Position numbers and translations under genes: made by a program
Assembly: GCA_949285455.1 (NCBI GenBank)
Contig: CASDXP010000005.1
Location: forward strand, 2,756 to 66,755
Length of the DNA stretch: 64,000 bases
Source: an uncultured bacterium
GTDB lineage: Bacteria > Bacillota_I > Bacilli_A > RFN20 > CAG-826
Direction of reading: 5' to 3'
In this document: piece by piece, positions 3,766-34,800 of the stretch
How the letters are laid out: every line of letters begins with the position of its first letter
How positions within the stretch are numbered: the first letter of the stretch is position 1
Notes under the pieces: generated by a model
What the model saw: only the letters and a program-made list of their open reading frames with translations
Told to the model about the DNA's origin: nothing
Database searches by the model: none

Positions 3766-5124
3766 GTGAAAAAAATCGTGTTTCCAAGAAAAATTTACGC
3801 TAAGTTGAAGGAGTGGAAAGAAACTTCTAAGGGAAGAAGCGCTCTTTTGATTGAAGGGGCGAGGCGAGTTGGAAAAACATTCGTTGCCACAACTTTTGCT
3901 AAAAATGAATTTTATGAATATGCTCTTATCGACTTTTCTATTGTAGATGATAAATTTAAAAACATTTTTAACGATTTGTCTCATATTGAAAACTTCTTCA
4001 GAGATTTATTTTTAGCCTTAGATCGTAAGCCTTTGAAAAAGGGAAGTTTAATAATATTTGATGAAGTGCAATTTTGCCCAAAAGCTAGGCAGGCTATTAA
4101 GGCTCTCGTCGCGGATGCAAGATATTATTACATCGAAACTGGTTCACTAGTGTCCATCAAAGAAAACACTAGAGATATTTTGCTACCTTCTGAAGAAGAA
4201 GCGATACAAATGCATCCGCTTGATTATGAAGAATTTTTATTGGCAATTGATCAGACTTACGAATTAGAGATATTGAAGGAAGCATATAAAAATCACCAGC
4301 AAATTTCTAATAATTTACATCAAAAATTTATGAAAAATTATCGTTTATATCTTTCCGTCGGAGGGATGCCGCAAGCGGTATTAGCCTATCTTACCAGCAA
4401 GGATTTTTTCCTCGTCGAACGTATCAAATCAAATATCTTAAAACTTTACGAAGATGATTTAAAAAAGATTGATCAAACTTATGGGACTTTTTGTTATAGC
4501 ATCTATTCTCAAATTCCTACAATGCTAACAAAACATTCTTTCAAATTCAAAAATTGTTCAGTTTCATCACGAGTAGATTCCTATGTTTTTAAAAATAGTA
4601 TGAATAAATTAATTGAATCAAAAATTGTCATTCCAGTTTATCGTTGTTTAGATCCGCAAGGCGGTTTTCTACTTAGCAAGGATGATTCGAATTTTAAATT
4701 ATATTTGCTCGATGTAGGTTTATTTACTTCTTTAATTTACGCAAAGGGGCATAACAACCAAGATAGTATCTATCAAAAATTAATTTTAGACGATACGCAC
4801 TTAAATCTAGGAATGCTATATGAAAACGCTATCGCACAAACTCTCGTGGCTAATAATTTCATTCCTTATTACTATCTTTGGATCGATTTAAATGGCAACA
4901 ACACCCCGCATTATTACGAGTTAGATTTCCTTGTTCAAAAGGGTTATAAAATTGTTCCCATTGAAGTAAAATCAAGTCGTAGTTTTGCGATAAAATCTTT
5001 AGATTTATTTGAGAAAAAATATTCTAAAAATATCTTTCATCGTTACTGTATTTCGCCCAAACCAATTAAATATGAAAGTAGTTTAACTTACTTGCCTTTC
5101 TATTTAAGTTTTTGTTTAGAATGA
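3766..5124 (+). CDS. AAA+ ATPase with C-terminal DUF4143 / PD-(D/E)xK-like nuclease-fold domain
   Basis: 452-aa ORF. P-loop GARRVGKT, Walker B IIFDEVQ. C-terminal ELDFLV..IEVKSS is a D..ExK motif. GTG start sits very close to a GGAGG, so the exact start is uncertain. Paralogous to 50168..51463. Confidence 0.65.
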   Translation: MKKIVFPRKIYAKLKEWKETSKGRSALLIEGARRVGKTFVATTFAKNEFYEYALIDFSIVDDKFKNIFNDLSHIENFFRDLFLALDRKPLKKGSLIIFDEVQFCPKARQAIKALVADARYYYIETGSLVSIKENTRDILLPSEEEAIQMHPLDYEEFLLAIDQTYELEILKEAYKNHQQISNNLHQKFMKNYRLYLSVGGMPQAVLAYLTSKDFFLVERIKSNILKLYEDDLKKIDQTYGTFCYSIYSQIPTMLTKHSFKFKNCSVSSRVDSYVFKNSMNKLIESKIVIPVYRCLDPQGGFLLSKDDSNFKLYLLDVGLFTSLIYAKGHNNQDSIYQKLILDDTHLNLGMLYENAIAQTLVANNFIPYYYLWIDLNGNNTPHYYELDFLVQKGYKIVPIEVKSSRSFAIKSLDLFEKKYSKNIFHRYCISPKPIKYESSLTYLPFYLSFCLE

Positions 5125-8013: not shown

Positions 8014-8016
8014 TTT

Positions 8017-9127
8017 ATGACAGATTTAAATACGATTAAGACATCATTAAGCGAAGACAAAACTATCATCCAAAAGTTAGGTGATTCACTTTGACCTGCC
8101 TAAATTAGAAGCACAAATTGAAGCATTAAATAAACAAGTGAATGACGATCATTTTTGGGATGACCGAAATGTGGCAGTGAAAGTCATCGATGAATTGAAT
8201 GAACTAAAAGATATCGTCGAAAACTATCATCAACTAATTGGGGATAGCGAGACGTTGAGCGATCTTTTATCATTAGTGGATGAAAATGATTTGTCTTTGA
8301 TGAATGAAATAGAAAAAGAATGGAAGAAATTTAAGAAAAATTATGATGAATTTCGTCTTAATATTTTATTTCAAGGTGAATATGATCATTTAAACGCTAT
8401 ATGTGAAATTCATCCTGGGGCCGGGGGAACTGAGTCACAGGATTGGGCGGATATGCTCTATCGTATGTATACAAGATATGCTGAAAAGCATCATTTTAAA
8501 GTCTCAATTTTAAATTATGAAGATGGGGATGAAGCTGGTATCAAATCAGTAACTTTCCGCGTGGAAGGTAAAAATGCCTACGGCTTATTAAAATGTGAAA
8601 AAGGGGTGCATCGTCTCGTAAGAATTTCTCCTTTTGATGCAAATAAAAGAAGACATACTTCTTTTGCTTCTTTTACTGCGACTCCAGAATTTAAAGGCGA
8701 CATCGATGTTAAAATCGATGAAAAAGATTTACGCATCGATACTTATCGTAGTGGTGGAGCGGGCGGTCAAAACGTCAATAAAGTAGAGACAGCTGTGCGT
8801 ATCACGCACTTACCGACTGGTATCGTTACCCAATGTCAAATTGAACGCAGCCAACTAGCGAATAAGGAATACGCGATGCGTATGCTCAAAGCTAAACTTT
8901 ACGAACGCGAACTAGAAATTAAGAAAAAGAATTTAAATGATATAATTGGAGATAAGAAAAATATCGAATGGGGAAGCCAGATTAGATCTTACGTCTTCTG
9001 TCCTTATACCTTAGTGAAAGATAATCGCACTGGTCATGAAGAAAGCGATGTCTACAAAGTGATGGATGGTGAGATTGATGGCTTTATTACCGCTATGTTA
9101 GAAAAGGAGGTAAAAGATCATGCTTAA
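8017..9127 (+). CDS. prfB: Peptide chain release factor 2, expressed via programmed +1 frameshift at CTT TGA C (8089..8095)
   Basis: Frame-0 ORF ATG 8017..TGA 8092 encodes [25 protein letters not shown]. The +1 frame continues DLPKLEAQ.. to 9127. It contains GGQ ([11 protein letters not shown]) and SPF (RISPFDANK) motifs. AGGTGA SD-like element lies just upstream of the slippery CUU. Confidence 0.85.
8089..8095 (+). other. Programmed +1 ribosomal frameshift site CTTTGAC of prfB
   Basis: Exact CUU UGA C heptamer in frame with the upstream 25-codon ORF, preceded by an internal SD-like AGGTGA. This is the classic RF2 autoregulatory site. Confidence 0.85.
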
Positions 9128-13260: not shown

Positions 13261-14193
13261 ATGCCTAAATGTTTACTTTACGTCTTTTCAGGAACCGGAA
13301 ATACCTATTTAGCGGCTTCCTTTCTTAAAGACGAATTAGAAAAATTACATTACGAAGTTGATATCAAAAAAATGGAAGGTGATATTACTTCGCTTGACGT
13401 CAATGCTTACGATGTCGTAGGCATAGGTTTTCCAATCTATGGATTCAATCCTCCACAAGTCGTGCCAAAGTTTGTTAAAAAGATTGAAACGCCAAAAGAA
13501 AAGAAAAAATTATTTTTCTTTCGTACATCAGGTGAACCATTCATGTGGAATGATGTCGCCGCAAGAAGACTAGCAAAACGTTTAAGAAAAAGAAATTTTG
13601 AACTTATTTTAGATAAGCATTTTCTCATGCCTTATAACATTATGTTTAGGTATAAAGATGCTTTAGCGAAGCAACTTTATTTATATTTAAAATCACTTTG
13701 CAAGTTATTAGCGATGCAAATTCAAAATGAAGAAAATGAAGGTACGAATTACGCTTGGTATAAAAGACCATTATCGTTCGTCGCAAGACTAGTCTACGTC
13801 GTTCCTTACGTCAATAAAGCTTTTTACGTCCACGTGAATAAAAAGAAATGTAACAATTGTAATTTATGCATCAATTCTTGTCCTACGAACGCTATTTATC
13901 GTAATAAGAAAGGCAAGATTAAATTTAATACAAAATGCACCGTTTGCATGCGTTGTTCCATGTTTTGCCCGCAAGATGCCGTGCGTTTTGGCATGTTATC
14001 GCATTGGAGAGTTAACGGAGCCTACAATTTTAAGAAGTTAGAAAAAGATGAAAATATCAACCCGAATTTCATCAATAAAAACACGAAAGGATACTTCAAA
14101 TTATTTAAAAAGTATTTTAAAGAACAAAATGCCCTCCTACGAGAGCATCAAATTCCTTTACCGATCGAATTTAAAGAAGACGAAGTCTTATGA
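13261..14193 (+). CDS. Flavodoxin-like / 2x[4Fe-4S] ferredoxin fusion (EFR1-family ferredoxin)
   Basis: N-terminus LLYVFSGTGNTYLAA is flavodoxin-like. Two CxxCxxCxxxCP clusters (CNNCNLCINSCP, CTVCMRCSMFCP). Confidence 0.6.
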   Translation: MPKCLLYVFSGTGNTYLAASFLKDELEKLHYEVDIKKMEGDITSLDVNAYDVVGIGFPIYGFNPPQVVPKFVKKIETPKEKKKLFFFRTSGEPFMWNDVAARRLAKRLRKRNFELILDKHFLMPYNIMFRYKDALAKQLYLYLKSLCKLLAMQIQNEENEGTNYAWYKRPLSFVARLVYVVPYVNKAFYVHVNKKKCNNCNLCINSCPTNAIYRNKKGKIKFNTKCTVCMRCSMFCPQDAVRFGMLSHWRVNGAYNFKKLEKDENINPNFINKNTKGYFKLFKKYFKEQNALLREHQIPLPIEFKEDEVL

Positions 14194-16542: not shown

Positions 16543-18172
16543 ATTAAAATTTTTATTATGCCCCATCATTTTGCTTAGCCTCATCGGCTGTTCAAATGAA
16601 GATGTGATGAATTTACCTTCTAATATCATAATAGATGAAGGGCAATCGACGATGTACTTAGAAATTGGCGATGCACAAAGATTGAAATGCTATAACGGAG
16701 AAAAAACGATAGACGATATTTCTTGGCATTCATCAAATTATAATGTTGTAAGCGTCGATATTTTTGGTAATATCGAAGCTTTGCATAAAGGAAAAGCCAC
16801 CATTACAGCTTCTACAGAAGGAAGAGATGAACATAATAATAAAACGACACTGGAAACAAAATTACAGATAGTTGTCAATCCATCTTATAATGACATTTTA
16901 GATGAACTCACTAACGACTTAGCGTTTTCCGCAGTTGTAAGAAAAAAAGGTAACAATGCTTCTTACGATGAACGATATTACATTGATACTTACTACTACA
17001 ATCGCGATTATAAGCAATATCATAGACAAGTTTCAAGAGTAAGTTTTTACACTTTATTACGAGACGGAATTTCTTCTTTGAACTATGTTTTTCTCGACGA
17101 ATTTTCTTCTTTCTTCGCAGATGAAAATGGCTATGCAATTACTAATTATTTAGATAGCAATAACGTCTTACATAATGATGTTATTTTAGATGAATTAGGA
17201 AACCCTATCATCTTTGATGAGGTGGCCATCTCACCATTTAAATATCTTAGTTCTGCTAATTTGTATTTTGCTGACGATTATACATTGAAGCTACTAGATT
17301 CAAACGAAAATAAAGTTAATTTTTTCAATGCCATTTATAATTGCAATATTGCTCTTGTTTCAGACATTGTTATTACCTACGATGATTTAGGCTTTCTTGA
17401 TACTTTATATTGTAATGGTGTGACGCTTGATTTGGCTGAATTTGAAATGTTAGGTACATTTACTTCTAGGCACCAGACAGGGGCTCCACGTAGGATTAGT
17501 GAGCCGGTTGAAGAAGAACTTGTCGCATTTTCTGAAGATCAAGAAATAGCGGTTCCAGCCATGTTAGAAGCTTTAAGAAATAAAAATTACACTATTGACA
17601 TCGAAGTGATAGGAGAAGGTGGAGACATCAATCATCAAATGAAAGTTACGCCTGATGGCATTGAAATATTAAAAAATCTTAGCATAGCGGGTAATCCAGA
17701 AACGATTGAAACTTACGCTCAAATAGATGATTTAGGTTTGATGCCAGTAGAAGTCGTTAATGAAAACAATGTCACTTATCTACAAGGTTTAAGCAATGAA
17801 AGTATTGCAAGTGACATCTACACTCTTAATCCAGTTGATTTTAATTCAAATTTATTTTTCTATCGTTATTCAGCCTATACGACAGAAGGTGGCCTTTATG
17901 GTGGTTTAGATAAGGCGAGTGGTCGCTTATTAGGTTTAGATCCACTTTATCCATTCTTCGATGAAGAAAGTAAGATTATCGATATTAATAAAGTTGCTTT
18001 TAATATTAGATTAAATTACGACTATGAGATGGAATATTTTCAATTATTCTACGCGAGTGGGGATGAATATGGTCTTAGTTCGACCGCTAGAAACGTCGGT
18101 TTAAAAATATATAATATTGGAACGACTTCTTTCTCATATAATGGTGCAACTTTTGTCCCTTTTAGTGAATGA
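16535..18172 (+). CDS. Surface lipoprotein with Big_2 (bacterial Ig-like) domain; paralog of 39661..42237
   Basis: 545-aa ORF. Lipobox LIGCSN. Big_2 signature ..ISWHSSNYNVVSVDIFGNIEALHKGKATITAST.. C-terminal region shares NPVDF..NLF, LLGLDP and ITNIGTT motifs with the 858-aa lipoprotein at 39661. Confidence 0.55.
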   Translation: MIKLKFLLCPIILLSLIGCSNEDVMNLPSNIIIDEGQSTMYLEIGDAQRLKCYNGEKTIDDISWHSSNYNVVSVDIFGNIEALHKGKATITASTEGRDEHNNKTTLETKLQIVVNPSYNDILDELTNDLAFSAVVRKKGNNASYDERYYIDTYYYNRDYKQYHRQVSRVSFYTLLRDGISSLNYVFLDEFSSFFADENGYAITNYLDSNNVLHNDVILDELGNPIIFDEVAISPFKYLSSANLYFADDYTLKLLDSNENKVNFFNAIYNCNIALVSDIVITYDDLGFLDTLYCNGVTLDLAEFEMLGTFTSRHQTGAPRRISEPVEEELVAFSEDQEIAVPAMLEALRNKNYTIDIEVIGEGGDINHQMKVTPDGIEILKNLSIAGNPETIETYAQIDDLGLMPVEVVNENNVTYLQGLSNESIASDIYTLNPVDFNSNLFFYRYSAYTTEGGLYGGLDKASGRLLGLDPLYPFFDEESKIIDINKVAFNIRLNYDYEMEYFQLFYASGDEYGLSSTARNVGLKIYNIGTTSFSYNGATFVPFSE

Positions 18173-18221
18173 TTGATTATTAATCTTTGTTTCTTAAATA
18201 ACTTATCACTATAATAGTGAT

Positions 18222-18926
18222 ATGGCTATCGCAGGTGTTTCTAATTTATCGCTCGTGGATTATGATGGTTATCTAACTTATACCATCTTCTTTAGTGGTT
18301 GTAATTTTCTTTGCCCTTTTTGCCATAATTCAATTATCGTCACAAGTGTAATAAAAGAAGATGAAATGTCTTTTGAAACGATTGTCAAAGATTTAAAAAC
18401 ACGCGTGAACAAGATAGATGCAGTCTGCTTTAGCGGTGGTGAACCTACCTTAGAGCCAAGACTTAAAGAATTTATTAAGCAAGTAAAAGAACTTGGCTTT
18501 TTAATTAAATTAGATACAAACGGGACAAGACCTGAAGTAGTGAAAGATTTATTAGATGATCATCTATTAGATTATATAGCGATGGATATTAAATCATCAT
18601 TAGATGATAAATATAATTTAGCAATTGGTAAAACCTTCGATTTAACACCAATAAAAAAGACAATTAATTTATTAAAAAATAGTTCTATCGATTTTGAATT
18701 TAGAACAACTTTAGTAAATGAATTACATGATGAAAAAACACTTATTCATATGATCGAATATTTAAAACCTTTTCCTAAATTAGTGTTTCAACATTTTGAA
18801 GATAGGGGTAGAAATATAAAAAATGGGCTCCACTCATTTCCTTATGACGAAGTAAAGAAAATTATTGATAGATACCCAAATTTAAATATTGAAACAAGAG
18901 GTTATGACTCGAGTGAGTCAAGATAA
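18222..18926 (+). CDS. nrdG: Anaerobic ribonucleoside-triphosphate reductase activating protein (radical SAM)
   Basis: 234-aa ORF. Radical-SAM cluster motif SGCNFLCPFCHN. Convergent with trxB and adjacent to nrdD. 25-nt 3' overlap with trxB. Confidence 0.75.
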   Translation: MAIAGVSNLSLVDYDGYLTYTIFFSGCNFLCPFCHNSIIVTSVIKEDEMSFETIVKDLKTRVNKIDAVCFSGGEPTLEPRLKEFIKQVKELGFLIKLDTNGTRPEVVKDLLDDHLLDYIAMDIKSSLDDKYNLAIGKTFDLTPIKKTINLLKNSSIDFEFRTTLVNELHDEKTLIHMIEYLKPFPKLVFQHFEDRGRNIKNGLHSFPYDEVKKIIDRYPNLNIETRGYDSSESR

Positions 18927-19819
18927 TCTAAACAATAGAAAGCTGCGATTGAACCATCGCTAGTAGCGGTGGTGACTTGTCTAATTTCTTTGACGCGCGT
19001 ATCACCAATAGCGAAGATACCGGGGACGTTAGTCATCATTCTTTCATTAGTGATAATGAAACCTTTTTCATTTAAATTAACTAAGTTTTTAAAAGCTTCG
19101 TTATGTGGAACTTGTCCGACCGCAATAAATATACCTTTCGCTTTAAAAGAACGTAATTCATGTGTTTTAGTATTTTCAAAGATAGCTTCATTAAAATCAG
19201 GCTCACCTTTTAGCTCTTTTAAATTGTAATTATAAAATACTTCGATGTTTTCTTTCGCTTTCATCCTTTTAATTAACGATAAGTCAGCGAACAATTTATC
19301 GAAGAGGGCCACTAAGTAAACTTTTTTAGAAGTAAGGGCTAACATATTAGCGTATTGTAAAGCTGTATTCGCGTCACCGACGACGATGACATCTTCATCA
19401 GCAAAGAACGCTCCATCACATGTCGCACAATATGATAAACCATGTCCGACATAATCATCTTCTTTTGCCACGCCAATCTTACGATGGCTTACTCCGTTTG
19501 CAATGATGACCGCTTTAGCGTGATGTTTACTTGTATCAGTGGTAACTTCAAAACCATCTTTCGTCTCTTCGATCGATAAAACATTTTCTAATTCAAATTC
19601 TGCTCCTAAGTCCATCACTTGCGTGAAAAAATTATCGATAAATTCTAGGCCAGAAATTTCTTTGATACCAGGAAGATTTTCGACGCGTGGCGATTTAGCG
19701 ATTTGCCCACCTAAAGATTCTTTTTCTAAGATGAGCACGCTCTTATCGTTACGTAATAAATTTAAAGCAGCGCTTAAGCCAGCTGGGCCAGCACCTATGA
19801 CGACGACATCTACATTCAT
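18902..19819 (-). CDS. trxB: Thioredoxin-disulfide reductase
   Basis: 305-aa ORF. FAD motif VVVIGAGPAGLSAA. Redox-active CATCDGAFF. NADPH site. Start lies 5 nt downstream of the nrdD stop. Confidence 0.85.
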   Translation of the reverse strand: MNVDVVVIGAGPAGLSAALNLLRNDKSVLILEKESLGGQIAKSPRVENLPGIKEISGLEFIDNFFTQVMDLGAEFELENVLSIEETKDGFEVTTDTSKHHAKAVIIANGVSHRKIGVAKEDDYVGHGLSYCATCDGAFFADEDVIVVGDANTALQYANMLALTSKKVYLVALFDKLFADLSLIKRMKAKENIEVFYNYNLKELKGEPDFNEAIFENTKTHELRSFKAKGIFIAVGQVPHNEAFKNLVNLNEKGFIITNERMMTNVPGIFAIGDTRVKEIRQVTTATSDGSIAAFYCLDYLDSLES

Positions 19820-19824
19820 AAACG

Positions 19825-22224
19825 TTAATTTTTCATCGAATCGATGTAGCCTTTGATATTGGAGGCGTTTTGATAATAGACGTAGCCATCTCCTTCTTTG
19901 CTTGGAACAAGTAAGGTTGGAGCTTGTTTAATATTATAAGATAATGTTTTTTCTTTTTCTTCTTCCGCGTCGATAGTGACGTAAGGAATATGATTCTTAT
20001 CTAACATCATTTTGACGATTTTACAATTTGGACAAGATTTCGTCGTAAAGAGCAGTAATGATTTATTTGTGTTCTTGTCATTAGTGACGACGTAATGCTC
20101 ATTTTCTTGATGACAATCTGTCGCGCGGTTCAATTCGATGTTTGAAATGCTCGCGGGGCTTACGAGGTAAGTCTTACGATCTTTAAATTCTTGTGCCTTG
20201 CCATCGTTCCAATTTTGTACAGGTCGATAATAACCAGTGATACGAGAATAAACTTCAGTCTTTTCGTGGCAGTGTGGACATTCATAGACTTCGCCTTTGA
20301 TGTAACCATGTTCCTTACATACTGAATAAGTAGGAGAAATAGTGTAATAAGGAAGTTTATAATTGTAAGCAATTTTTCTCACTAAGTTTTTCGTCGCTTG
20401 CCAAGAAGGCATCTTTTCGCCTAGGAAAGTATGGAAAACGGTTCCTGAGGTATAAAGTGGTTGAAGTTTATCTTGAATATCTAAAGCTTTAAAAATGTCA
20501 TCAGTGAAGCCGACTGGTAAGTGACTTGAATTCGTATAATATGGAGTCTTATTATCATCTGAAGCAGTGATGATGTCTGGATATAGTTTCTTATCGTGCT
20601 TAGCTAGACGATAGGCAGTCGATTCTGCCGGAGTAGCTTCAAGATTATATAAATCACCATATTGTTCTTGATAATCTTTAAGTTTTTCACGCATAAAATT
20701 AAGGGTTTTTACCGCGAAATCTTGTGCTTCTTCATGCGTTAAGTCACATCTTAACCATCTAGCGTTCAAACACGCTTCATTCATTCCTACCAAACCGATA
20801 GTGGAGAAGTGGTTATTAAAAGTACCGAGGTAACGTTTGGTGTAAGGATATAATCCAGCATTTAATAAACGAGTGATCGTATCTCTTTTAATTTTTAATG
20901 ATCTTGCACTTAAATTCATTAACTTAGTTAAACGATCATAGAAATCATTTTCATCCGTGGCAAGATAAGCAATACGCGGTAAGTTGATTGTGACGACACC
21001 AACTGAACCAGTCGATTCACCGCTTCCAAAGAAGCCGCCTGATTTTCTTCTTAATTCTCTTAAATCGAGTCTAAGACGGCAACACATCGAACGAACATCG
21101 CTTGGTTCCATATCAGAATTAATATAGTTTGAGAAATATGGGGTGCCATATTTCGCAGTCATCTCAAATAATAACTTATTATTTTCCGTATCAGACCAAT
21201 CGAAGTCGCGAGTAATAGAATATGTTGGGATCGGATATTGGAAACCACGACCATTTGCGTCACCTTCAATCATAATTTCGATGAAAGCACGGTTGACCAT
21301 ATCCATTTCTTTTTTACAATCACCATAGGTGAAATCGCATTCTTTACCACCTACGATCGCAGGCATATTTTTCATGTCGTTAGGAACGACCCAATCTAAT
21401 GTAATGTTAGAAAATGGTGCTTGCGTACCCCAACGTGATGGAGTGTTCACGCCGTAGACGAAAGATTGAATGCATTGTTTAACTTCTTTATAAGTTAAAT
21501 TATCTTTTTTAGCAAAAGGAGCAAGATAAGTATCAAAGCTTGAGAAGGCTTGCGCGCCTGCCCATTCATTTTGCATAATACCTAAAAAGTTGACCATTTG
21601 GTTACATAAAGTCGAAAGGTGAGATGCAGGGCTAGAAGTAATTTTACCAGGTACGCCGCCTAAACCTTCTTGAATAAGTTGCTTTAATGACCAACCAGCG
21701 CAGTAACCTGAAAGCATCGACAAGTCGTGGATATGGATGGCCCCGCTACGATGAGCTTGTTCAATTTCAGAATCATAAATTTCTGAAAGCCAATAATTCG
21801 CAGTCATCGCTCCAGAGTTAGAAAGAATAAGACCACCGACGGAATAAGTGACAGTGGAATTTTCTTTGACGCGCCAGTCATTGATTTTTAAATAATCATT
21901 AACCGTTTGAGCGTAATCTAATTCCGTCTTCTTAATTTGTCTTAAAGATTCATGTCTTTTACGATAGATAATATAAGATTTAGCAATATCGATATAGCCA
22001 CCTTGAATTAAAGCAATTTCGACTGCGTCTTGAATATCTTCGACATCGATGATGTCATCTTTAATTTTATTGTTGAACACCGCAGTTGTGTTAAGAGCTA
22101 ATAAACTAATAATATTATCATCATAATATTTGTTCTCTGCTTTAAACGCTCTTTCAATAGCGTTTTTAATCTTATTTAAGTCAAATTCTACAATCGATTC
22201 ATCTCTTTTTCTTACTTTGATCAT
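19825..22224 (-). CDS. nrdD: Anaerobic (class III) ribonucleoside-triphosphate reductase with N-terminal ATP-cone and C-terminal glutaredoxin/NrdH-like CxxC domain
   Basis: 799-aa ORF. ATP-cone (MIKVRKRDESIVEFDLNKI..). Glycine-radical motif RITGYYRP with CPHC zinc ribbon. A ~120-aa extension carries TKSCPNCKIVKMML, a thioredoxin-fold CPxC motif. Confidence 0.9.
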   Translation of the reverse strand: MIKVRKRDESIVEFDLNKIKNAIERAFKAENKYYDDNIISLLALNTTAVFNNKIKDDIIDVEDIQDAVEIALIQGGYIDIAKSYIIYRKRHESLRQIKKTELDYAQTVNDYLKINDWRVKENSTVTYSVGGLILSNSGAMTANYWLSEIYDSEIEQAHRSGAIHIHDLSMLSGYCAGWSLKQLIQEGLGGVPGKITSSPASHLSTLCNQMVNFLGIMQNEWAGAQAFSSFDTYLAPFAKKDNLTYKEVKQCIQSFVYGVNTPSRWGTQAPFSNITLDWVVPNDMKNMPAIVGGKECDFTYGDCKKEMDMVNRAFIEIMIEGDANGRGFQYPIPTYSITRDFDWSDTENNKLLFEMTAKYGTPYFSNYINSDMEPSDVRSMCCRLRLDLRELRRKSGGFFGSGESTGSVGVVTINLPRIAYLATDENDFYDRLTKLMNLSARSLKIKRDTITRLLNAGLYPYTKRYLGTFNNHFSTIGLVGMNEACLNARWLRCDLTHEEAQDFAVKTLNFMREKLKDYQEQYGDLYNLEATPAESTAYRLAKHDKKLYPDIITASDDNKTPYYTNSSHLPVGFTDDIFKALDIQDKLQPLYTSGTVFHTFLGEKMPSWQATKNLVRKIAYNYKLPYYTISPTYSVCKEHGYIKGEVYECPHCHEKTEVYSRITGYYRPVQNWNDGKAQEFKDRKTYLVSPASISNIELNRATDCHQENEHYVVTNDKNTNKSLLLFTTKSCPNCKIVKMMLDKNHIPYVTIDAEEEKEKTLSYNIKQAPTLLVPSKEGDGYVYYQNASNIKGYIDSMKN

Positions 22225-22391
22225 AATGCCTCCTCAGGTGATAAAAAAAGAACGCTTACTTCTATAAAAGAAGTTAACTTTTTGCAAGACATATTTTATA
22301 TAAATATATAGTTATATTAGAAGTGTTTTGCTCAAATTTTTTTGACTTTTACAAAACCATATTATTTAAGTAGAAAATTAGTAGTTTCAAT

Positions 22392-22829
22392 TTATTCTAC
22401 TTCGTAAAATTTTACTTGAATTTGTTTACTTTCTAGCGTGACGATAGCGTAACTTCCTAAACTTCCATCTCTTGGATAATCTAATGAACCAGGATTGATG
22501 AAGTGAATACCATCATGGACACGGTAATCCTTCTTGTGCGTATGGCCAGAAATAACGATCTTAATATTTTTATCGTAAAGATCATTCAATGAATATTGTA
22601 AGATGTGACGCATTATTAAACTACCAAAAGGCGTAGGGTGCACGTACTCTTTTTGCATTTCAAATAAATAATCTCTATTACCTTTGACAGTAATGAAAGG
22701 AAATAGCTCGTCTGGTGAAAGTTCGCTATCACCAGCGTGCAAATATAAATCCATCTTCGGATGTTTTATTAAGAGCTTTTTTAAATTATCAATTTCACCA
22801 TGCGTATCGCTTACTACTAAGATTTTCAT
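22392..22829 (-). CDS. YfcE/MJ0936-family metallophosphoesterase
   Basis: 145-aa ORF. MKILVVSDTHGE..GD..GNRD..GHTH motifs of calcineurin-like phosphoesterases. Confidence 0.7.
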   Translation of the reverse strand: MKILVVSDTHGEIDNLKKLLIKHPKMDLYLHAGDSELSPDELFPFITVKGNRDYLFEMQKEYVHPTPFGSLIMRHILQYSLNDLYDKNIKIVISGHTHKKDYRVHDGIHFINPGSLDYPRDGSLGSYAIVTLESKQIQVKFYEVE

Positions 22830-25235: not shown

Positions 25236-25829
25236 ATGATTGTTACAGTTAATATTTTAAAAAATAAATATCAAAATTATCGAAATGTATTAGATAAGAT
25301 TAAAAGAGAAGTAGATAATGGCACTTTAATACGCATTAAAAATGGCTTATATGAAACCGATAGAAATGTTGAACCATATTACCTTGCTTCTTCTATCGTT
25401 TCTCGTTCTTATCTAAGTTTTGAATGGGCTTTATCTATCTATGGTCTTATCCCTGAAAGAGTCTATACATTTACTTCAGCTTCTTATAACCTAAGAAAAA
25501 ATAAAACGTATGTTAATTACTTCGGCTGTTTTGAATTTTATGATGTACCTAAAAATATTTTTTATGAAGGAGTGAATTCTTATCTAGAAAAAGGTTACAT
25601 TTACAAAATTGCTACAAAAGAGAAAGCTATTTGTGATTGTTTGGCTAAGTGGCCAGTTGTCCATTCTATTAAACAACTTAAAATTTTATTGTTCGAAGAT
25701 AAAAGAATTTATGAAAACGAATTTAATAAATGTGATTTTAAAGCAATGTCGAACCTTGCAAGTTTGTATCATAAGACAAATTTAAAACTTTTAGTTGAAT
25801 TAATAAATAAGGAGTATTTATATGCCTAA
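25236..25829 (+). CDS. abiEi: AbiEi-family antitoxin/transcriptional regulator (type IV TA/abortive infection)
   Basis: 197-aa ORF. 8-nt overlap with the downstream nucleotidyltransferase gene. Sequence pattern ..IKNGLYET..YLSFEWALSIYGL.. is shared with the second copy at 57070. Confidence 0.65.
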   Translation: MIVTVNILKNKYQNYRNVLDKIKREVDNGTLIRIKNGLYETDRNVEPYYLASSIVSRSYLSFEWALSIYGLIPERVYTFTSASYNLRKNKTYVNYFGCFEFYDVPKNIFYEGVNSYLEKGYIYKIATKEKAICDCLAKWPVVHSIKQLKILLFEDKRIYENEFNKCDFKAMSNLASLYHKTNLKLLVELINKEYLYA

Positions 25830-26688
25830 CACACTTGAATTAATGCTTGCAAAATACGATTTAAAATCTCAATTAGACAAAGAAAACGCTATTAAGGAAA
25901 TAATGCAAGAAATTGCTTTAGCAGGCTTAGCAAACACTAATTTTTTCACTAAAGCGGCATTTTATGGAGGAACTTGTCTTCGCATTTTCTACGGTTTAGA
26001 TCGATTTAGCGAAGATTTAGATTTTGCACTTTTAAATAAAGATGAAAATTTCGATTTATCAAATTATTTCGAACCATTAAAAAATGAATTTAACATGTAT
26101 GGTATTAATCTAGATATTGAATATATAACGAAGAAAAATAGTGATGTGGAAAGTGCTTTTATTAGTGCGAATACGGCGACTCTTATGCTTCATTTTTATC
26201 ACGATAATAGCGAAGTAAAAAGTATCATCCATAATCAAAAAATTAAAATTAAATTTGAAATAGATATGAATAATCCACCTGGTGGTAAAGTAGAATTTAG
26301 ATATCAAACTCTACCGGAACCTTACGAAATTCAAATATTCGATGAATCTAGTTTATTTGCAGGAAAGATACATGCTATTTTATGTCGTAATTATCTTCAT
26401 CGTGTGAAAGGGCGCGATTATTTTGATTATCTATTTTTTATTTCTAGTGGCACGAAATTTAATCTTAAATATTTAGAAAATAAACTAAAAAATACTGGCG
26501 GGATAATCGATTCAAAAGAAGCGTTAACTTTAGATAAAGTGAAAGAACTTCTTTACGCCAAGTTTAGCCATGTCGATTATCCTTTAATGGTTGAAGATGT
26601 GTCTAAATTTATTCCTAATAAAGAACAATTGAAAACTTATAAAAAAGAATTATTTTTATCTACCTTAAATAAATTGGAATGCACGTAA
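25822..26688 (+). CDS. abiEii: AbiEii-family nucleotidyltransferase toxin (DUF1814)
   Basis: 288-aa ORF. Nucleotidyltransferase motif GGTCLRIFYGLDRFSEDLDF (GS/GG..DxD). Translationally coupled to abiEi. Confidence 0.7.
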   Translation: MPNTLELMLAKYDLKSQLDKENAIKEIMQEIALAGLANTNFFTKAAFYGGTCLRIFYGLDRFSEDLDFALLNKDENFDLSNYFEPLKNEFNMYGINLDIEYITKKNSDVESAFISANTATLMLHFYHDNSEVKSIIHNQKIKIKFEIDMNNPPGGKVEFRYQTLPEPYEIQIFDESSLFAGKIHAILCRNYLHRVKGRDYFDYLFFISSGTKFNLKYLENKLKNTGGIIDSKEALTLDKVKELLYAKFSHVDYPLMVEDVSKFIPNKEQLKTYKKELFLSTLNKLECT

Positions 26689-28066: not shown

Positions 28067-29248
28067 ATGTTATTACAATTTTCAACGGTGAATTTTAAAT
28101 CATTTAAAAACGAAGTAACTTTAAATTTGGTAGCTAACAATTTTAAAGAACACGAAGAACGCATTATTTATTTTAATAATGAAAGAGTGCTGCCTCTCGT
28201 CGGTGTTTTTGGTGCGAATGCTTCAGGTAAAAGCAATTTATTAGAAGCTTTTTTCTTCGCTGTCAATTTGATAAGAAATTCTTTATCTTCTCAAACATCA
28301 GAAGAACTTTTTAATATAAAGCCTTTCATGTTTGATGATTCTAAAGATAATTCGCCTTCATCCTTCGATTTTATTTTTGTTAAAGATGGGGTGAAATATG
28401 AATATGGTTTTGCTATTGATAAGAAGTGTGTTATTGAAGAATATTTATATGTATATAAAAGCCAAAAACCATCTTTAGTTTTTGAAAGAAAAAATGTCAA
28501 TGAATATCATTTTAGAGATTATGCTCGTCACGAATTATCGCCGATTGTGTCAAGAACTCTGCCTAATAAATTGTTTTTATCGGTCGCCGCAAATTTCAAC
28601 GCCAAACTTGTCAAAGCTTGTTTTGATTGGTTTAAGAACGATATCAATTTCTATTTTGAACAAGCGATTGAGGAAAAGGCAATTCTAGATGCTATTAAAG
28701 ATGAAAAGATGAATAAATTTATCGCTGATTTTTTAAATCACGCTGATATCAATATATCAAATATTAAATGGCAAATTGCTAAAATAAATAATCAACAAAA
28801 GATTAATTTTAAGACCATGCATCTCATCAGAGCTAATGGGGAATTAAAAGAGTTTTCCTTAGATATAAAAGATGAATCACACGGCACACAAAAATTGCTT
28901 TCATACGCGCCTTTGTTTTATAAAGCGCTAAACTTTGGCGGAGTGGTCGTCATCGATGAGATAGATAATGCTATCCACGTTGAGCTCATGAAATACATCA
29001 TCTCGTTATTTAACGACCCGTTAATAAACAAAACCTCTGCCCAACTTATTTTCAACGCTCAAAATGCCCTCTTGTTAGATTTAGATATTATGCGTCGTGA
29101 TCAAATTTGTTTTGTCGAAAAAAACTTCCTTACTGGTGTTTCTTCTCTTTATTCGCTCGATGAATTTAAGGTGCGCCTGGATGATAAAGTACTAAAAAAA
29201 TATCTAGAAGGAAGATATGGAGCATTACCGAACATCATTTATGAATGA
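28067..29248 (+). CDS. AAA_15/AAA_21-type ATPase (AbiLi/RloA-like abortive-infection ATPase)
   Basis: 393-aa ORF. Walker A GANASGKSNLLEA. Walker B VVIDEIDNAIH. ABC/SMC-like architecture. Stop overlaps the downstream start (ATGAATGA). Confidence 0.6.
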   Translation: MLLQFSTVNFKSFKNEVTLNLVANNFKEHEERIIYFNNERVLPLVGVFGANASGKSNLLEAFFFAVNLIRNSLSSQTSEELFNIKPFMFDDSKDNSPSSFDFIFVKDGVKYEYGFAIDKKCVIEEYLYVYKSQKPSLVFERKNVNEYHFRDYARHELSPIVSRTLPNKLFLSVAANFNAKLVKACFDWFKNDINFYFEQAIEEKAILDAIKDEKMNKFIADFLNHADINISNIKWQIAKINNQQKINFKTMHLIRANGELKEFSLDIKDESHGTQKLLSYAPLFYKALNFGGVVVIDEIDNAIHVELMKYIISLFNDPLINKTSAQLIFNAQNALLLDLDIMRRDQICFVEKNFLTGVSSLYSLDEFKVRLDDKVLKKYLEGRYGALPNIIYE

Positions 29249-29864
29249 AATTATAGTTGGACAAAAGAGGCGAAAATTAAATTCTCGTCTCGATAAAAAA
29301 CTTATCCTCCTAGGTGTAGAAGGAAAAAATAGCACCGAAGCGTCCTATTTTCTTAATTTTAATCGCCTGCAAAATACTTATCGTATCAAAATCGCTAAGG
29401 GGCGAGATACGCATCTATTAAGTATAATAGATGAATTAAATTTGTGCCGTAAAGACACCGATTTTAAAAAAGGAGATTTAATGTATTGTATTTTCGACTT
29501 AGATAATGATCCATATAAAATAAAAGTAGCGGATGAGTTGATAAAAAAATATCGTAAGCAAGACATTATTTTTCTTTATTCTAATCCTTGTTTTGAATTA
29601 TTTTTTCTTTGGCATTTTATTTATTCGACGAAGCCTTATTCAAATAGTCGTAAAGTTATTACTGATTTAAAAAAACACATGCCATATTACGAAAAGAACA
29701 TTAATTGTTTTCACTCATTATTTTCTAAAATTGAAATAGGGATTAGAAACAGTGAAAACATAATGTTTTATCATAGTAGGCATAAACAGTTTGGTATTTA
29801 TTTAAATCCAGTAACTAAAGTTCATGTATTAGTAAAATTATTATTTTCTTTTATACAACGTTAA
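29241..29864 (+). CDS. RloB-like (TOPRIM-like) protein, AbiLii-like partner of the upstream ATPase
   Basis: N-terminal LILLGVEGKNSTEASYF matches the RloB signature (..CEGxKTExxYF). ATG 29241 overlaps the ATPase stop. The ORF track start at 29217 is also possible. Confidence 0.55.
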   Translation: MNEIIVGQKRRKLNSRLDKKLILLGVEGKNSTEASYFLNFNRLQNTYRIKIAKGRDTHLLSIIDELNLCRKDTDFKKGDLMYCIFDLDNDPYKIKVADELIKKYRKQDIIFLYSNPCFELFFLWHFIYSTKPYSNSRKVITDLKKHMPYYEKNINCFHSLFSKIEIGIRNSENIMFYHSRHKQFGIYLNPVTKVHVLVKLLFSFIQR

Positions 29865-30741: not shown

Positions 30742-31299
30742 CTATAACGTCAAAGTAAAAACAAAAGCAAATATAATTGCGTTAAGCGACGCTAAAATTG
30801 AATAAATTTCGATAGGAATACTTTTAATTTTTTCTTCATTTTGTTCTTTTTCCTCATTTTCTTCTTCATCACTTTCAATCGATTCTAAAGGTTTAGAAAT
30901 AGTTCGCCCTCTTCTTTTAAAATGTTTCATTCTTGTTTGCTGATATAAATATCTTGCTAGCCAAATTATCGTTACCGTAACAAAAAGCAAAACTATAAAA
31001 CTTGGAATATCTAGTGGTTCGTTGATATCAAGATTTAATTTGTAAGTATATTCAACGTAAGCAAAAAGGATGATATCTATGATTAAAATTATGATAGAAA
31101 TGGGAAGCATATAGGTATATTCTCTTTTAGTCATTTTCTTTCTAATTTGATCTTTAGTTAACGCTCCTACTTTATTATCGATATGAAGCCATTTCTTCTT
31201 AAATATTTCTATCAATATAGAGGGATATAAAATCTGAAATAAACTTAATCCTATAATTGCGTATAAATATGAATACATTGATGATTGCCTACCCTTCAA
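30742..31299 (-). CDS. Small polytopic membrane protein, paralog of 31303..31848 (orphan immunity-protein candidate)
   Basis: 185-aa ORF, 3-4 predicted TM helices. N-terminal ~55 aa are closely similar to the neighbouring gene, then diverge. Acidic C-terminal tail. Confidence 0.4.
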   Translation of the reverse strand: MKGRQSSMYSYLYAIIGLSLFQILYPSILIEIFKKKWLHIDNKVGALTKDQIRKKMTKREYTYMLPISIIILIIDIILFAYVEYTYKLNLDINEPLDIPSFIVLLFVTVTIIWLARYLYQQTRMKHFKRRGRTISKPLESIESDEEENEEKEQNEEKIKSIPIEIYSILASLNAIIFAFVFTLTL

Positions 31300-31302
31300 C
31301 GA

Positions 31303-31848
31303 TTAATACAATATTAGAATTGGTATGAGGATGAAACTATTGAACAAAATAATTGAAGTATATAGTGTCATTGCAGCATTTTTGCCTGATTCATTCAAAA
31401 CCCATTTCATTCTTTTCCATCTCTCTCGTGCAGTATGCCGCCCATGGGCTAAATAACCCCCATCGACGGCTTTTATATTTCTTCCAAATATTTTTTTTCT
31501 TGCTTCGTAATAAACGTCAATAATTGCAGAAGCAAGAACAGCAAAGACAAAAAGCAATATTATTATGGAAGCAGCTACTATTAATGGCTTATCCATTGTA
31601 ATTGTGTATTGAAAAGCACAAAAACAATAAATTAGAAGAGTAGCGTTTATTATTAGAATTGGCAAAGAAACTAGAGTTAGAAAAATATGTTCCCTTTTTC
31701 CCATTTTATTTCTTACTTCTCTTTTAGATAAAGTTCCATTTTCATTATCGATATGGAACCATCGTTTTTTAAAAATAGTTATCAACAAAATGGGGAATAA
31801 AATTAGAAATAAACTTAACCCTATAATTGTATATAAATATGGATACAT
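31303..31848 (-). CDS. Small polytopic membrane protein immediately downstream of the RHS toxin gene (cognate immunity-protein candidate)
   Basis: 181-aa ORF beginning 22 nt after the RHS stop on the same strand. Hydrophobic helices. Confidence 0.4.
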   Translation of the reverse strand: MYPYLYTIIGLSLFLILFPILLITIFKKRWFHIDNENGTLSKREVRNKMGKREHIFLTLVSLPILIINATLLIYCFCAFQYTITMDKPLIVAASIIILLFVFAVLASAIIDVYYEARKKIFGRNIKAVDGGYLAHGRHTARERWKRMKWVLNESGKNAAMTLYTSIILFNSFILIPILILY

Positions 31849-31869
31849 TAGATTGCCTACCTGTTTCTA

Positions 31870-34800
31870 TTAATTTTTATTATTTTCTATTATTCCATAC
31901 ATTGATGAATTAAGGAAATCGCTTATTAAATTTTCGAATTTGTCTGAAATTATTTCTAGAAATTTAGGAGTTATAGATGTGCCTAACCTTGCTATTAGCC
32001 TCCCAAATATTTTATCCATTCCATTAGTGAGCTCTCCAAATATGTTAGTACTTATTCCGCTTACAACTCCGTTCATAAAAGAAGTAAAGAGATCCATATC
32101 AGTACCATACGTTAAAAAATCAGTAACTATTGAACCAATAATTTCGCCTGCAAAGGTAGCAACCACATCTACAATAAGCCTGGTGATTTTATAATATATA
32201 TGATTCAAACTAACAGCAGCAAATAATCCGCTTATAAATCCGCTTACAAATGCACCTAAATATTCTTGCCATGATGACCATTTCCATCTAGAAAAATCTA
32301 ATTGGTAATTGATTAGGTTCATTATGATATCTGTGACAAATAATGTAGCGACGCTTATTGCTGCAAATATTATTCCATATAGTAGTGCGGTTAATATCCA
32401 AATCCTTCCGCTTGAATCAACGTACTTAATAGGATTGTTTCTACAATAGATGTATAAATTTAAACCATTAAGTTGAGTTTTAGTTTCATCTAAGATTGAT
32501 AATTCATCACGTGAAATAAATCTAGCGAAGAAGGGACTATAATATCTTGCATTTAGATAATATAAATTAGATTCAGCGTCATAATAATAACTACGATATC
32601 TAAATGGGTTAATATTACCTATATTTTCTGAAGTGTGATTAATAACCTCGTGATTACCAAAAGCATCATATTCATAACTTGCAACTAGAGTTAAATCATC
32701 TTGCTTATAAATGTTTATAATGTCACCAAAAATATTTTTCTCATAAATGTAACTAGTGCCATTATGAGTAAAACCTATTAACGATTTATTCAAGTAATGG
32801 TATTCAATATCTTTCGAACTAGATTTTTCTCTTAAAATAAGATTATTTGATAAATAATATGTTGTTTTTTCACCATTTATTGTTTTTGAAGTTCTAATAC
32901 CGTTTAAATTATAAGTGTAACTAACATTATCAAAATTAATTAAATGCGATTCATTATTCCAAACGAAGGTATGATTATCATATGAAGTAAGTCTTCCTAA
33001 GGCATCGAAAGTTACATCTTTATCATTGACTCTTCTTAAGATATCTTTATTTGATGAAACGTTATAATAGAAGTTATCTACATGCGTGGAATCTAATAAT
33101 ATTTCATCTTCGTGAGTGTAATCATAAGTTGTTCTATTAACTAAATTACCATTTGCATCATAACTATACGTTATCGTTTTATTTAGTTCTTTATTATCTT
33201 CTCTAATTAAACGATCAACTTTATCGTATTTATAATAAGTATTACCAATATCACTTTTTACTTTGGTGACGTTAAGAAGTTTATCGTAATCGTAAGAATA
33301 ACGATGATAAACATTACTTCCAATAATATTTTCTAGCAATTTAATATTTGTAAGAGTCTTTTTGTCAGTGGTGAAATAATTTAAATTCTGTCTTAATAAA
33401 ACATTAGAATTAGTGTCCTTTATTTCGTTATATGTAAGACGACCAAAAACATCAGATTTTAAATTCGCTAAATAGTTAGATGAAGTGATAGAAGTTAATC
33501 TTAAGGTTTTACTATCATAAGAATAACTAGAAGATATAGTCTTATCGCCTAGATTGATACTTTCACTATCCAAACAATTTTTATTAGCGAAAGAATAAGT
33601 GTGAATAACATTAAGTTCATCGTAAGCATCAATTTCTTTAGTTAATCTATCGTAATCATCGTAAGTATATGAAATCGATTCTTCACCTTTTTCAATTTTT
33701 ATCAATCTTTTCTTATCATCATAAGTATAGTTAATAGTGGAATTATCGCTTCTCGTCGATTTTATTAAATTACTATCTTTATCATAAATTGAAGAAATCG
33801 TGTAGTTTAACGGACTAATCGTAGTGACTATCTTTTCCCCGTTAGTGACTAAATCGTCGCTGTAATTGCTAGTGTAGGCAAATGAATATAAAGACGATTC
33901 TCCAATTTTTATGTGGGTTTTACGGTGCTTATAATCATAAGAATAAGTATAAATTATTCCATCTTGCTCCATGGAAGTTAATAAATCCGATGTATAGTTA
34001 AATTTGATTGGATTAATTAAACCATCATCGTTATAAGAAAGATCCACTAGTTTTTGTGAATAGATATCGTAGCCTAATGATAATGTAGAATTATTTGGCC
34101 CGATGATAGTAGTAGGATATCTTGAATTAGAAAGATAATTAATCTGATAATCATCCTCATTTGTGAGTCTTCCTAATTCATCATAAACACTAGTTTTTTC
34201 TTGTTTTAAAGAAGGGGAATCTAAATTATATTGATAAGTTTTGTTCTTAAAACCTAATTCATCATAATTTATTTCTTTAACGTTATTTAAATTATCTATC
34301 GTACGAATTAATCGATTGTAATTATCGTAATCGTATTTCTTTTGAGCTGTAACACCGTAGATATCGTTAGAGACTTCCCTTACCAGATTTGAGTTTCTAT
34401 ATTCGTAATCTATTACGTTAGATGGGCTTAATTTTCTTAGTAAATGTAAGTCGTCATCATAAATATTAATTTCACCAATGACTTCATAAATTTTCACTTC
34501 TAAGTTAGTAAAGAAAGAAGAAGGAATTTCTAAATCAGAAGTAATTTTGATCGTTACCTTACTAACTAAATTATTGAAGAAAACCGGAATAGCTATTTGA
34601 GGGGTGATTCTATCGTAATGAATAGTGTAACTCGCTAGGTCGCCGGTCGCTATTATTTCAATCGATAATTCATTTTCATTATTGATATCAAAATTTGTTA
34701 TATTTGAAAAATCTATGATCGTGGCGGCAAGCAAATATTTTTTTGCAAAATCAATTTCACTTTTTAAAATTTGTAAAGTAAAACTACCATTTGAATAACT

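Follow-up and report, generated by a model that had tools for sequence, protein, structure and literature searches.

A candidate thiol-relay module for anaerobic deoxynucleotide synthesis, built on a class III ribonucleotide reductase with a tethered glutaredoxin-like domain and a coupled thioredoxin-reductase-like flavoprotein

Introduction

The precedent for a thioredoxin (Trx)-dependent class III ribonucleotide reductase (RNR) is the NrdD2 subtype, which is distinguished by a third cysteine in the finger loop and by a glutamate, with some members also carrying a methionine, as far as the work of Wei et al. (2014) is related in PMC4493059. According to Burnim et al. (2022; PMC9669993), 83% of the NrdDs with a double cysteine have the finger loop MCCR; such methionine-containing enzymes appear to hold the components for using either formate or thioredoxin, and the label “thioredoxin-only” is limited there to small subclades with SCCR and the glutamate (N. 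bacilliformis, T. maritima). A fused glutaredoxin (Grx) domain that reduces an RNR has also been described (PMC6187632), and Table S1 of that 2018 paper lists, with no analysis, a single Glutaredoxin:NrdD protein from Lachnospiraceae bacterium TWA4 (subclass NrdDd). Finally, thioredoxin reductases (TrxRs) that are independent of pyridine nucleotides provide a third precedent (PMC8154056, PMC12796991), the absence of the GxGxxA and HRRxxxR motifs being the literature criterion for a TrxB that does not use NADPH (PMC10880999). Here we describe a locus that brings elements of all three together. It lies in a 64,000-nucleotide stretch of contig CASDXP010000005.1 from an uncultured bacterium of the Bacilli_A (hereafter the window, in whose positions all coordinates are given), and comprises nrdD with a C-terminal Grx-like extension, a trxB-like gene and nrdG. 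We propose, with a probability of about 0.62, that these genes constitute a thiol-relay module for anaerobic deoxynucleotide synthesis, a proposal that includes the statement that its electron donor is probably not NADPH.

A redoxin domain at the C-terminus of NrdD

The window NrdD is a class III RNR by several features: it matches the Pfam NRDD barrel (PF13597) over residues 121-686 (E 1.6e-193, 644.8 bits) and the NCBIfam model PRK08270 over residues 1-687 (1135 bits vs a cut-off of 548), and it has the RxxGY glycyl-radical motif and a Zn-binding Cys/His cluster (C636/H639/C649/C652). In its vicinity lies a gene for a cognate activase of the NrdG2 type (TIGR02495). Past the glycyl-radical motif the protein extends for 131 further residues, which comprise a linker followed by a predicted folded domain (Table 1). 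Among homologues the linker varies between 1 and 51 residues in length and its sequence is not conserved. We modeled the last 149 residues of NrdD with AlphaFold2 on a 32-sequence alignment. Residues ~721-799 were predicted with a per-residue confidence (pLDDT) of 91-97 to form elements in the order beta-alpha-beta-alpha-beta-beta-alpha, and a Foldseek search of the PDB returned exclusively Trx-fold matches (thioredoxins, glutaredoxins and the NrdH 4fiw) with a probability of 1.0. By sequence, the nearest PDB proteins are the glutaredoxin 2klx, the Trx-like 3zij and the NrdH 1r7h.

Profile matches to this domain are weaker. Pfam Glutaredoxin (PF00462) matches residues 724-758 with 23.3 bits, barely above its gathering score of 22.9, and there is a weak match to Pfam Thioredoxin over residues 717-782. 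The redox motif and the cis-Pro loop (A768-P769-T770) are strongly conserved, the latter being invariant in the 32 aligned homologues; here and below, counts over 32 refer to aligned C-terminal homologues and counts over 63 to full-length fused NrdDs from other species. Thus, profile score, a CxxC motif at the start of helix 1, cis-Pro loop and topology all indicate a Trx-fold, Grx-type domain, the profile part marginally; because the AlphaFold2 fold, the Foldseek matches and the motif conservation agree independently, that marginal score becomes a firm assignment. We hence regard the extension as a confidently predicted thioredoxin fold with a CxxC. Assignment to a particular subfamily is another matter. 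In place of the glutathione-binding residues of glutathione-dependent glutaredoxins (CPYC, TVP, GGxdD), a reading of the sequence finds CPNC, APT and NASNIKGYI, and no GG-x-D, so that the domain does not qualify as one of them on this reading. The NrdH-redoxin model TIGR02194 scores 16.7 bits vs a cut-off of 85.75, and the C(V/M)QC and WSGFRP motifs are absent; YruB (TIGR02196), the best Grx-like match in NCBIfam, reaches 27.1 bits vs 88.55 and covers only the N-terminal 35 residues; and the NCBIfam mycoredoxin models also stay below their cut-offs. The domain is therefore best called a Grx/NrdH-like redoxin of its own subfamily.

Several of these points had been anticipated in an earlier note on this DNA, which had described a class III RNR with a C-terminally fused Grx/NrdH-like CPxC domain. 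The fusion is borne out by Pfam, AlphaFold2, Foldseek and the invariant CPNC, and the structure prediction recovers the thioredoxin fold that the note had expected. Its estimate of ~120 residues after the glycine-radical motif was somewhat short, and of the two kinds of profile it had thought applicable, Grx matches marginally and NrdH does not. The note had also put 5 nt between the nrdD stop and the start of trxB and had nrdG converge on trxB with a 25-nt overlap; both points are correct on the DNA. Between the nrdD stop codon TAA (19825-19827) and the trxB ATG lie the five nucleotides CGTTT (19820-19824), and the 3′ ends of nrdG and trxB overlap at 18902-18926. A strong ribosome-binding site, GAGGAGG, precedes nrdD. 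As read from the DNA, the trxB-like gene lacks an obvious site of its own, which fits translational coupling to nrdD. No NrdR box was detected at up to 3 mismatches anywhere in the 64-kb window, including upstream of nrdD, and promoter and terminator scans of 18000-22500 gave matches no higher than expected from shuffled sequence.

The NrdD active site

Active-site residues were mapped by a HMMER alignment to the T. maritima NrdD (4coi), to which the window protein has low overall identity (E 7e-40 over the core), and correspond to GYC175AGW, MCCR and NLE529ATPAE. Both finger-loop cysteines are kept in all 63 full-length fused NrdDs, 62 of which have MCCR and one ICCR. The two marks of NrdD2, namely the third cysteine (C381 beside the radical C382) and the glutamate (E529), are both present, and the active site is, as read from this alignment, an NrdD2-like and putatively thiol-competent set (C175, C381, C382, E529). 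The methionine-less finger loop that marks the “thioredoxin-only” subclades of PMC9669993 is absent. Since it has MCCR instead of SCCR, the window NrdD falls in the larger MCCR+Glu group, and the retention of Met380 means that thiol-only use, with formate excluded, cannot be concluded.

A TrxB-like flavoprotein with altered NAD(P)H motifs

The best PDB relatives of the TrxB-like protein are TrxRs of Gram-positive bacteria (E ~4e-60, ~45% identity), and its FAD motif (G9-A-G-P-A-G14) and C-terminal GD...RQ flavin motif are intact. Of the signatures that characterise thioredoxin reductases dependent on NADPH (NTRs) it has the FAD-binding GxGxxG and the CxxC, and neither GxGxxA nor HRRxxxR (Table 1); on TIGR01292, the equivalog model for the NADPH-dependent enzymes, it scores 307.4 bits vs a cut-off of 343.45. 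Its relatives are named by NCBI only “FAD-dependent oxidoreductase”.

Three types of reductase could be distinguished among 67 nrdD-linked homologues, two being left unclassified. Type A, to which the window protein belongs, has GD[AG]N[ST]A...[TA]LFDxxF[AG]D (41/67); type B has the canonical GGGxSA...HRRxxFR (13/67) and comes mostly from Oscillospiraceae-type Clostridia; and type C has GGGNSA...Q(N/D)LPxxTGE (12/67), resembling the Thermosipho africanus enzyme 7jyp. In a rough, unsupported neighbour-joining tree, in which type B counts 15 members with two PDB reference reductases and type C 13 with 7jyp, type A forms a single clade within the nrdD-linked group, with the housekeeping TrxRs outside. 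Type A also accounts for every one of the 120 database relatives nearest to the window protein.

With both NAD(P)H motifs replaced and the variant conserved as a single clade, NADPH is not a likely donor, and we consider it quite probable from these motifs that the window reductase is not NADPH-dependent. Moreover, the replacement is so strongly conserved that it points to a working protein with a different donor and not to a decaying gene. Possible donors are ferredoxin, flavodoxin and NADH; by analogy with the FFTR/DTR enzymes (PMC8154056, PMC12796991), ferredoxin or flavodoxin would be the leading candidate, dependence of the window reductase on either being something that we suggest only tentatively. 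With similar reserve, one may speculate that the type A proteins represent a new monophyletic clade of pyridine-nucleotide-independent flavin disulfide reductases, which would have evolved from an ancestor resembling NTRs, separately from the FFTRs of clostridia and cyanobacteria, and which would be dedicated to feeding low-potential electrons from ferredoxin or flavodoxin via the tethered redoxin into class III RNR. The types also track taxonomy: GDANTA/LFD is found in Bacilli and Christensenellales, canonical HRR in Oscillospiraceae-like metagenome-assembled genomes (MAGs) and QNLP/QDLP in Lachnospiraceae-like MAGs. This suggests, at the level of sequence motifs, that the same module may be driven by different electron donors in different lineages.

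Distribution and conserved neighborhood

Using the last 149 residues of NrdD as query, a protein-cluster search matched 1,369 clusters; among the 120 listed, nearly all carry both NRDD and Glutaredoxin Pfam domains, the sources being metagenomes and MAGs with annotations as Firmicutes, Clostridia, Bacilli and Erysipelotrichaceae. A genome scan with one genome per GTDB species yielded at least 597 matching stretches, of which the best 80 loci were retained. The fusion is encoded in all 80, the match running from query residue 1 or 2 to ~143-149 and thus covering most or all of the Grx-like domain, and it is hence present in at least 80 species-level loci. These come mostly from MAGs of gut and rumen origin that belong to Bacilli, Christensenellaceae, Oscillospiraceae, Lachnospiraceae and Erysipelotrichaceae, with NrdD cores 70-76% identical to that of the window, and a 94%-identical relative carries the same gene layout as the window. 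An assembly or frameshift artefact is ruled out by the recurrence of the fusion in the 80 loci and in this relative. In a search with full-length NrdD against 50%-identity representatives, the glycyl motif was located in 68 of the top 150 relatives, and 18 of these 68 have an extension of at least 90 residues with a CxxC (CPNC, CPKC, CPWC, CESC and others), several also with inteins. This search is of limited use for counting fusions, for at 50% identity the fused family is reduced to few clusters and many matches carry inteins, but it did turn up a variant without the CxxC; the nearest unfused NrdDs are only ~50-55% identical.

Where at least 1 kb of sequence is available downstream (75 loci), the gene next to nrdD-grx is trxB-like and lies on the same strand in 65, with gaps of -14 to 293 nt (median ~6). 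The position of nrdG is less constant: it lies convergently downstream in 22 loci, which like the window show the Bacilli-type arrangement, and upstream in the orientation of nrdD in 29, the Clostridia-type arrangement, trxB staying put regardless. By blastp clustering of open reading frames (ORFs) of at least 60 residues in the 80 loci, nrdD, trxB and nrdG are the only families that recur in the neighborhood.

Two natural variants, each a single case, fit a functional pairing of the Grx-like domain with TrxB. The first, P0280 (L085, 491-2839), is a distant fused NrdD of 782 residues, 47% identical, with a long Asn/Gln-rich linker and a C-terminal domain that is homologous (BLASTP E 8e-10) but has NRNDENS in place of the CxxC, so that both cysteines are lost; it has no trxB downstream and could represent a module that has decayed or been put to another use. 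In the second, the Clostridia MAG locus L044, the fused NrdD is directly followed, in the place of trxB, by a second NrdD (6633-8906, + strand), which is 24% identical, has VMGCR and no Glu at the E529 position, and thus shows a formate-type pattern.

Many close NrdD relatives (P0242-P0390) reach lengths of 1000-1900 residues and align with the query in 2-4 discontinuous segments, a sign that inteins are often inserted, also in fused NrdD-Grx proteins; there is none in the window NrdD.

Table 1. Features of the nrdD-grx locus (window coordinates; residue numbers are those of the encoded protein)
Feature	Coordinates	Strand	Description and evidence
nrdD-grx	19825..22224	-	799 aa; ATP-cone, NrdD core, linker and Grx-like domain; ORF list, Pfam, NCBIfam
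ATP-cone, allosteric on/off domain	21949..22221	-	NrdD residues 2-92; Pfam PF03477, 71.2 bits
C175, “bottom-face” active-site cysteine	21700..21702	-	aligns with T. maritima C125; kept in 63/63 fused homologues
Finger loop M380-C381-C382-R383, double-cysteine type	21076..21087	-	aligns with T. maritima SCCR 328-331 (C329/C330)
E529, putative proton-donor Glu of thiol-dependent NrdDs	20638..20640	-	aligns with T. maritima E495; NLEATPAES kept in 63/63
Glycyl-radical motif RITGYYRP (residues 661-668, G664)	20221..20244	-	invariant in 63/63 and 32/32
Flexible linker, residues ~687-720 (~34 aa)	20065..20166	-	pLDDT ~47-56, no secondary structure (AlphaFold2)
Glutaredoxin/NrdH-like thioredoxin-fold domain, residues 721-799	19828..20064	-	Pfam, AlphaFold2, Foldseek, PDB sequence matches
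Redox motif C731-P-N-C734, in TKSCPNCK (residues 728-735)	20023..20034	-	C, P and C invariant in 32 homologues; CPNC in 63/63
trxB-like gene, low-molecular-weight thioredoxin-reductase-family flavoprotein	18902..19819	-	305 aa; type A, NAD(P)H motifs lost; Pyr_redox_2 E 8.8e-43 (Pfam)
Redox-active C131-A-T-C134 of TrxB-like protein	19418..19429	-	aligns with canonical TrxR CAVC; CxxCDG in 67/67 nrdD-linked homologues
G148-D-A-N-T-A153, at NAD(P)H GxGxxA site (canonical GGGDSA)	19361..19378	-	GD[AG]N[ST]A in 120/120 closest database homologues
A171-L-F-D-K-L-F-A-D179, at HRRxxxR 2′-phosphate-binding site (canonical HRRDxLR)	19283..19309	-	LFD/LFN in 119/120 closest homologues
nrdG, radical-SAM activase of NrdD	18222..18926	+	234 aa; TIGR02495 NrdG2, 196.2 bits vs cut-off 131.15; Radical_SAM match

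The proposed relay and its alternatives

From these features we infer the following path. NrdG would install the glycyl radical on G664, upon which C382 of the finger loop would start nucleotide reduction; the C175/C381 pair would supply the two reducing equivalents, with E529 as the proton donor, leaving a disulfide in the active site. This disulfide would be re-reduced by the enzyme's own Grx-like domain through C731/C734, swinging on its ~34-residue disordered tether, and within the NrdD dimer the domain may serve either its own subunit or the partner. Once oxidised, the domain would be recycled by the TrxB-like flavoprotein, presumably coupled to it in translation, via FAD and C131/C134. 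In the window the electrons of this flavoprotein would probably come from a source other than NADPH, both NAD(P)H motifs being replaced by a different, strongly conserved sequence.

Several points weigh against this proposal. The Grx Pfam score barely exceeds its threshold and the domain fits no curated Grx-like subfamily; an adjacent trxB is missing in 10 of the 75 fused loci; and no ferredoxin, flavodoxin or rubredoxin genes are conserved beside the module in the 80 loci, ORFs of at least 40 residues with ferredoxin or rubredoxin motifs occurring in only 8/80 loci and at inconsistent positions. The relay would also require that a folded Grx-like domain reach a buried active-site disulfide. 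The TrxB-like protein is closer to NADPH-dependent TrxRs (E 1e-60) than to the clostridial FFTRs (6gna/6gnc, E ~1e-31), and what we read as a lost NAD(P)H site may possibly be an altered NADH site. Lastly, the finger loop keeps Met380, and such a methionine serves formate-dependent chemistry in E. coli-type enzymes, MCCR enzymes being ambiguous in this respect (PMC9669993).

This last point underlies an alternative that we regard as unlikely, namely that formate stays the catalytic reductant via Met380 and C175 (thiosulfuranyl chemistry), with the Grx-like domain and the TrxB-like enzyme serving to repair or protect active-site and Zn-site cysteines after oxidative insult, or as a back-up reductant when formate is scarce. 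It accounts for the retention of Met380 in 62/63 fused NrdDs and agrees with the remarks in PMC9669993 that an MCCR enzyme has what is needed for either route and that possession of the methionine looks ancestral; furthermore, the anaerobe from which the window comes has genes for O2 defence, one of them encoding a flavodiiron protein at 38260-39456. However, E529 and C381 are equally invariant, and these are the residues needed for formate-independent reduction in the N. bacilliformis work, as that is reported in PMC9669993. Further, a covalent 1:1 fusion with translational coupling is the layout expected of a stoichiometric catalytic partner, as in the F. ignava Grx-NrdB (PMC6187632), and neither pyruvate formate-lyase nor any other formate-related gene was seen in the module by ORF clustering in the 80 loci.

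The earlier note had itself favored a route from NADPH through TrxB and the Grx domain to NrdD, in which the TrxB-like protein would be a thioredoxin reductase of the usual NADPH-dependent kind. For the window we consider this improbable. The protein is indeed nearest in overall sequence to NADPH-dependent bacterial TrxRs (E ~1e-60, ~45% identity), and the canonical GGGxSA...HRRxxFR is intact in the 13/67 nrdD-linked homologues of type B, for whose species the NADPH route is thus probably right. In the window protein, on the other hand, the replaced motifs remove all three arginines that bind the 2′-phosphate and the second glycine of the dinucleotide loop. The same replacement is seen in 41/67 nrdD-linked homologues and 120/120 of the nearest database relatives, the TIGR01292 cut-off is missed (307 bits vs 343) and NCBI assigns these relatives no name more specific than that given above. 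The first step of the note's route is therefore not supported by the sequence of this protein. Its description of NrdD as an enzyme of the thioredoxin-dependent type survives in part, for the active site has the thiol-type residues C175, C381 and E529 while the loop with the retained Met380 is MCCR and not SCCR. Its phrase “rather than by formate” claimed too much, an MCCR loop being compatible with either route (PMC9669993).

It is very improbable that disulfide reduction in the cell at large, with many clients, is the task of the Grx-like domain and the TrxB-like enzyme, and that their place in an nrd operon is incidental: the host appears to belong to a small-genome lineage of gut Bacilli and no ORF of the trxA type (WCGPC) lies within the 64-kb window, but the window is a fraction of the genome and this absence says little, a redoxin held by a covalent tether on an enzyme of ~80 kDa would make a poor diffusible reductant for general use, and the linkage to nrdD is conserved across distant classes of Firmicutes where the remaining neighborhood is not.

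Other features of the window

The window encodes further redox proteins: a fusion of Flavodoxin_5 with 2x[4Fe-4S] (310 aa, 13261-14193, +), for which no counterpart was found in the other loci, a flavodiiron-type O2/NO reductase (38260-39456, +) and a Flavodoxin_4 protein (56111-56575, +). They mark an anaerobic host and are the sole candidates in the window for donors to NrdG or the TrxB-like protein; none is conserved beside nrdD elsewhere.

Several loci of other kinds are also present. A gene for an RHS-repeat protein of 2078 aa (31870-38106, -) is followed by two paralogous membrane-like ORFs of ~183 aa (31303-31848 and 30742-31299) with near-identical N-termini, and the whole (30742-38106, -) has the appearance of a polymorphic-toxin locus whose immunity genes stand in tandem. 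A type IV toxin-antitoxin pair of AbiEi-like and AbiEii (PF08843) proteins is encoded at 25236-26688 (+); a second AbiE-like set at 57070-58747 (+) seems to be broken up into three ORFs that overlap, and is possibly degraded. Overlapping genes for an AAA_21 ATPase and an RloB-like protein (28067-29864, +) are a candidate defence or abortive-infection module. Finally, there are three paralogous ORFs of ~400-450 aa (3766-5124, +; 50168-51463, -; 51941-53149, +) with P-loop ATPase-like N-termini (GARRVGKT, GARQVGKT and GVRRCGKS), one of which adjoins the only tRNA of the window (50048-50121).

Implications

The fusion of the redoxin and the coupled reductase gene amount to Rosetta-stone evidence for the use of a protein dithiol by MCCR+Glu NrdDs. 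The module offers a ready three-protein test system, in which the question of formate or thioredoxin becomes directly testable on the commonest double-cysteine NrdDs. It is common in uncultured gut Firmicutes, which may depend mainly or wholly on class III RNR for their DNA precursors, and its reductase variant is a candidate new lineage among the few NADPH-independent TrxR-like enzymes. Automatic annotation calls the reductase only an FAD-dependent oxidoreductase and sometimes labels the NrdD “(formate)”. Were the conjecture of a ferredoxin- or flavodoxin-fed type A clade true, many uncultured Bacilli and Christensenellales of the gut would draw on the ferredoxin pool, and not on NADPH or formate, for deoxynucleotide synthesis, and the large MCCR+Glu group of NrdDs would be thiol-dependent.

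Comparison with known systems

The NrdD2 enzymes of N. bacilliformis and T. maritima (Wei et al. 2014), as they are described in PMC4493059 and PMC9669993, share with the window NrdD the double-cysteine loop, the bottom cysteine, the glutamate and a proposed protein-dithiol reductant; they differ in having SCCR without the methionine, a free thioredoxin and an NADPH-dependent TrxR, where the window has MCCR, a fused redoxin and a reductase devoid of the NAD(P)H motifs. The NrdD3 of Methanosarcina barkeri (Wei et al. 2015), to the extent that it is covered in PMC5704485 and PMC9176816, likewise has a dedicated Grx/NrdH-like redoxin and a reductase that is not linked to NADPH and is encoded with nrdD. 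However, its loop is QCCR, it lacks the glutamate, its redoxin is a separate protein and, as reductase, it has no flavoprotein of the TrxR family but a ferredoxin:disulfide reductase, an Fe-S enzyme that belongs to the ferredoxin:thioredoxin-reductase type. In the Grx::ATP-cone::NrdB protein of Facklamia ignava (Rozman Grinberg et al. 2018, PMC6187632), too, a Grx fold is fused to an RNR subunit, and there it has been shown experimentally to be the reductant; that fusion, unlike the present one, belongs to class I and places a glutathione-dependent GrxC-type domain at the N-terminus of the radical-generating subunit.

On the side of the reductase, the FFTR/DTR enzymes of Clostridium and cyanobacteria (PMC8154056, PMC12796991, PMC10880999) parallel the window protein in having the low-molecular-weight TrxR fold, FAD and a CxxC without GxGxxA and HRRxxxR. 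They are nonetheless more distant from it (E 1e-31 to 1e-29 for the C. acetobutylicum 6gna/6gnc/6gnd and 1.4e-36 for the G. violaceus 5j60) than NADPH-type TrxRs (4e-60), and the window protein does not cluster with the characterised FFTRs, lying in a clade of its own that is linked to nrdD. The NrdH-redoxin of class Ib RNR, like the fused domain, has a small Grx-like fold, is reduced by TrxR and not by glutathione, and is dedicated to RNR, but it has C(V/M)QC and WSGFRP where the window domain has CPNC and no WSGFRP. The survey of RNR extensions in PMC9669993 mentions no redoxin extension of class III, and nothing relevant to an nrdD-trxB operon was found in the literature that we searched. 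Thus, what appears to be new is the combination and its extent: an abundant fusion, found in the MCCR+Glu group of NrdDs and coupled to the gene of a dedicated reductase, whose NAD(P)H motifs have been lost in the lineage of the window.

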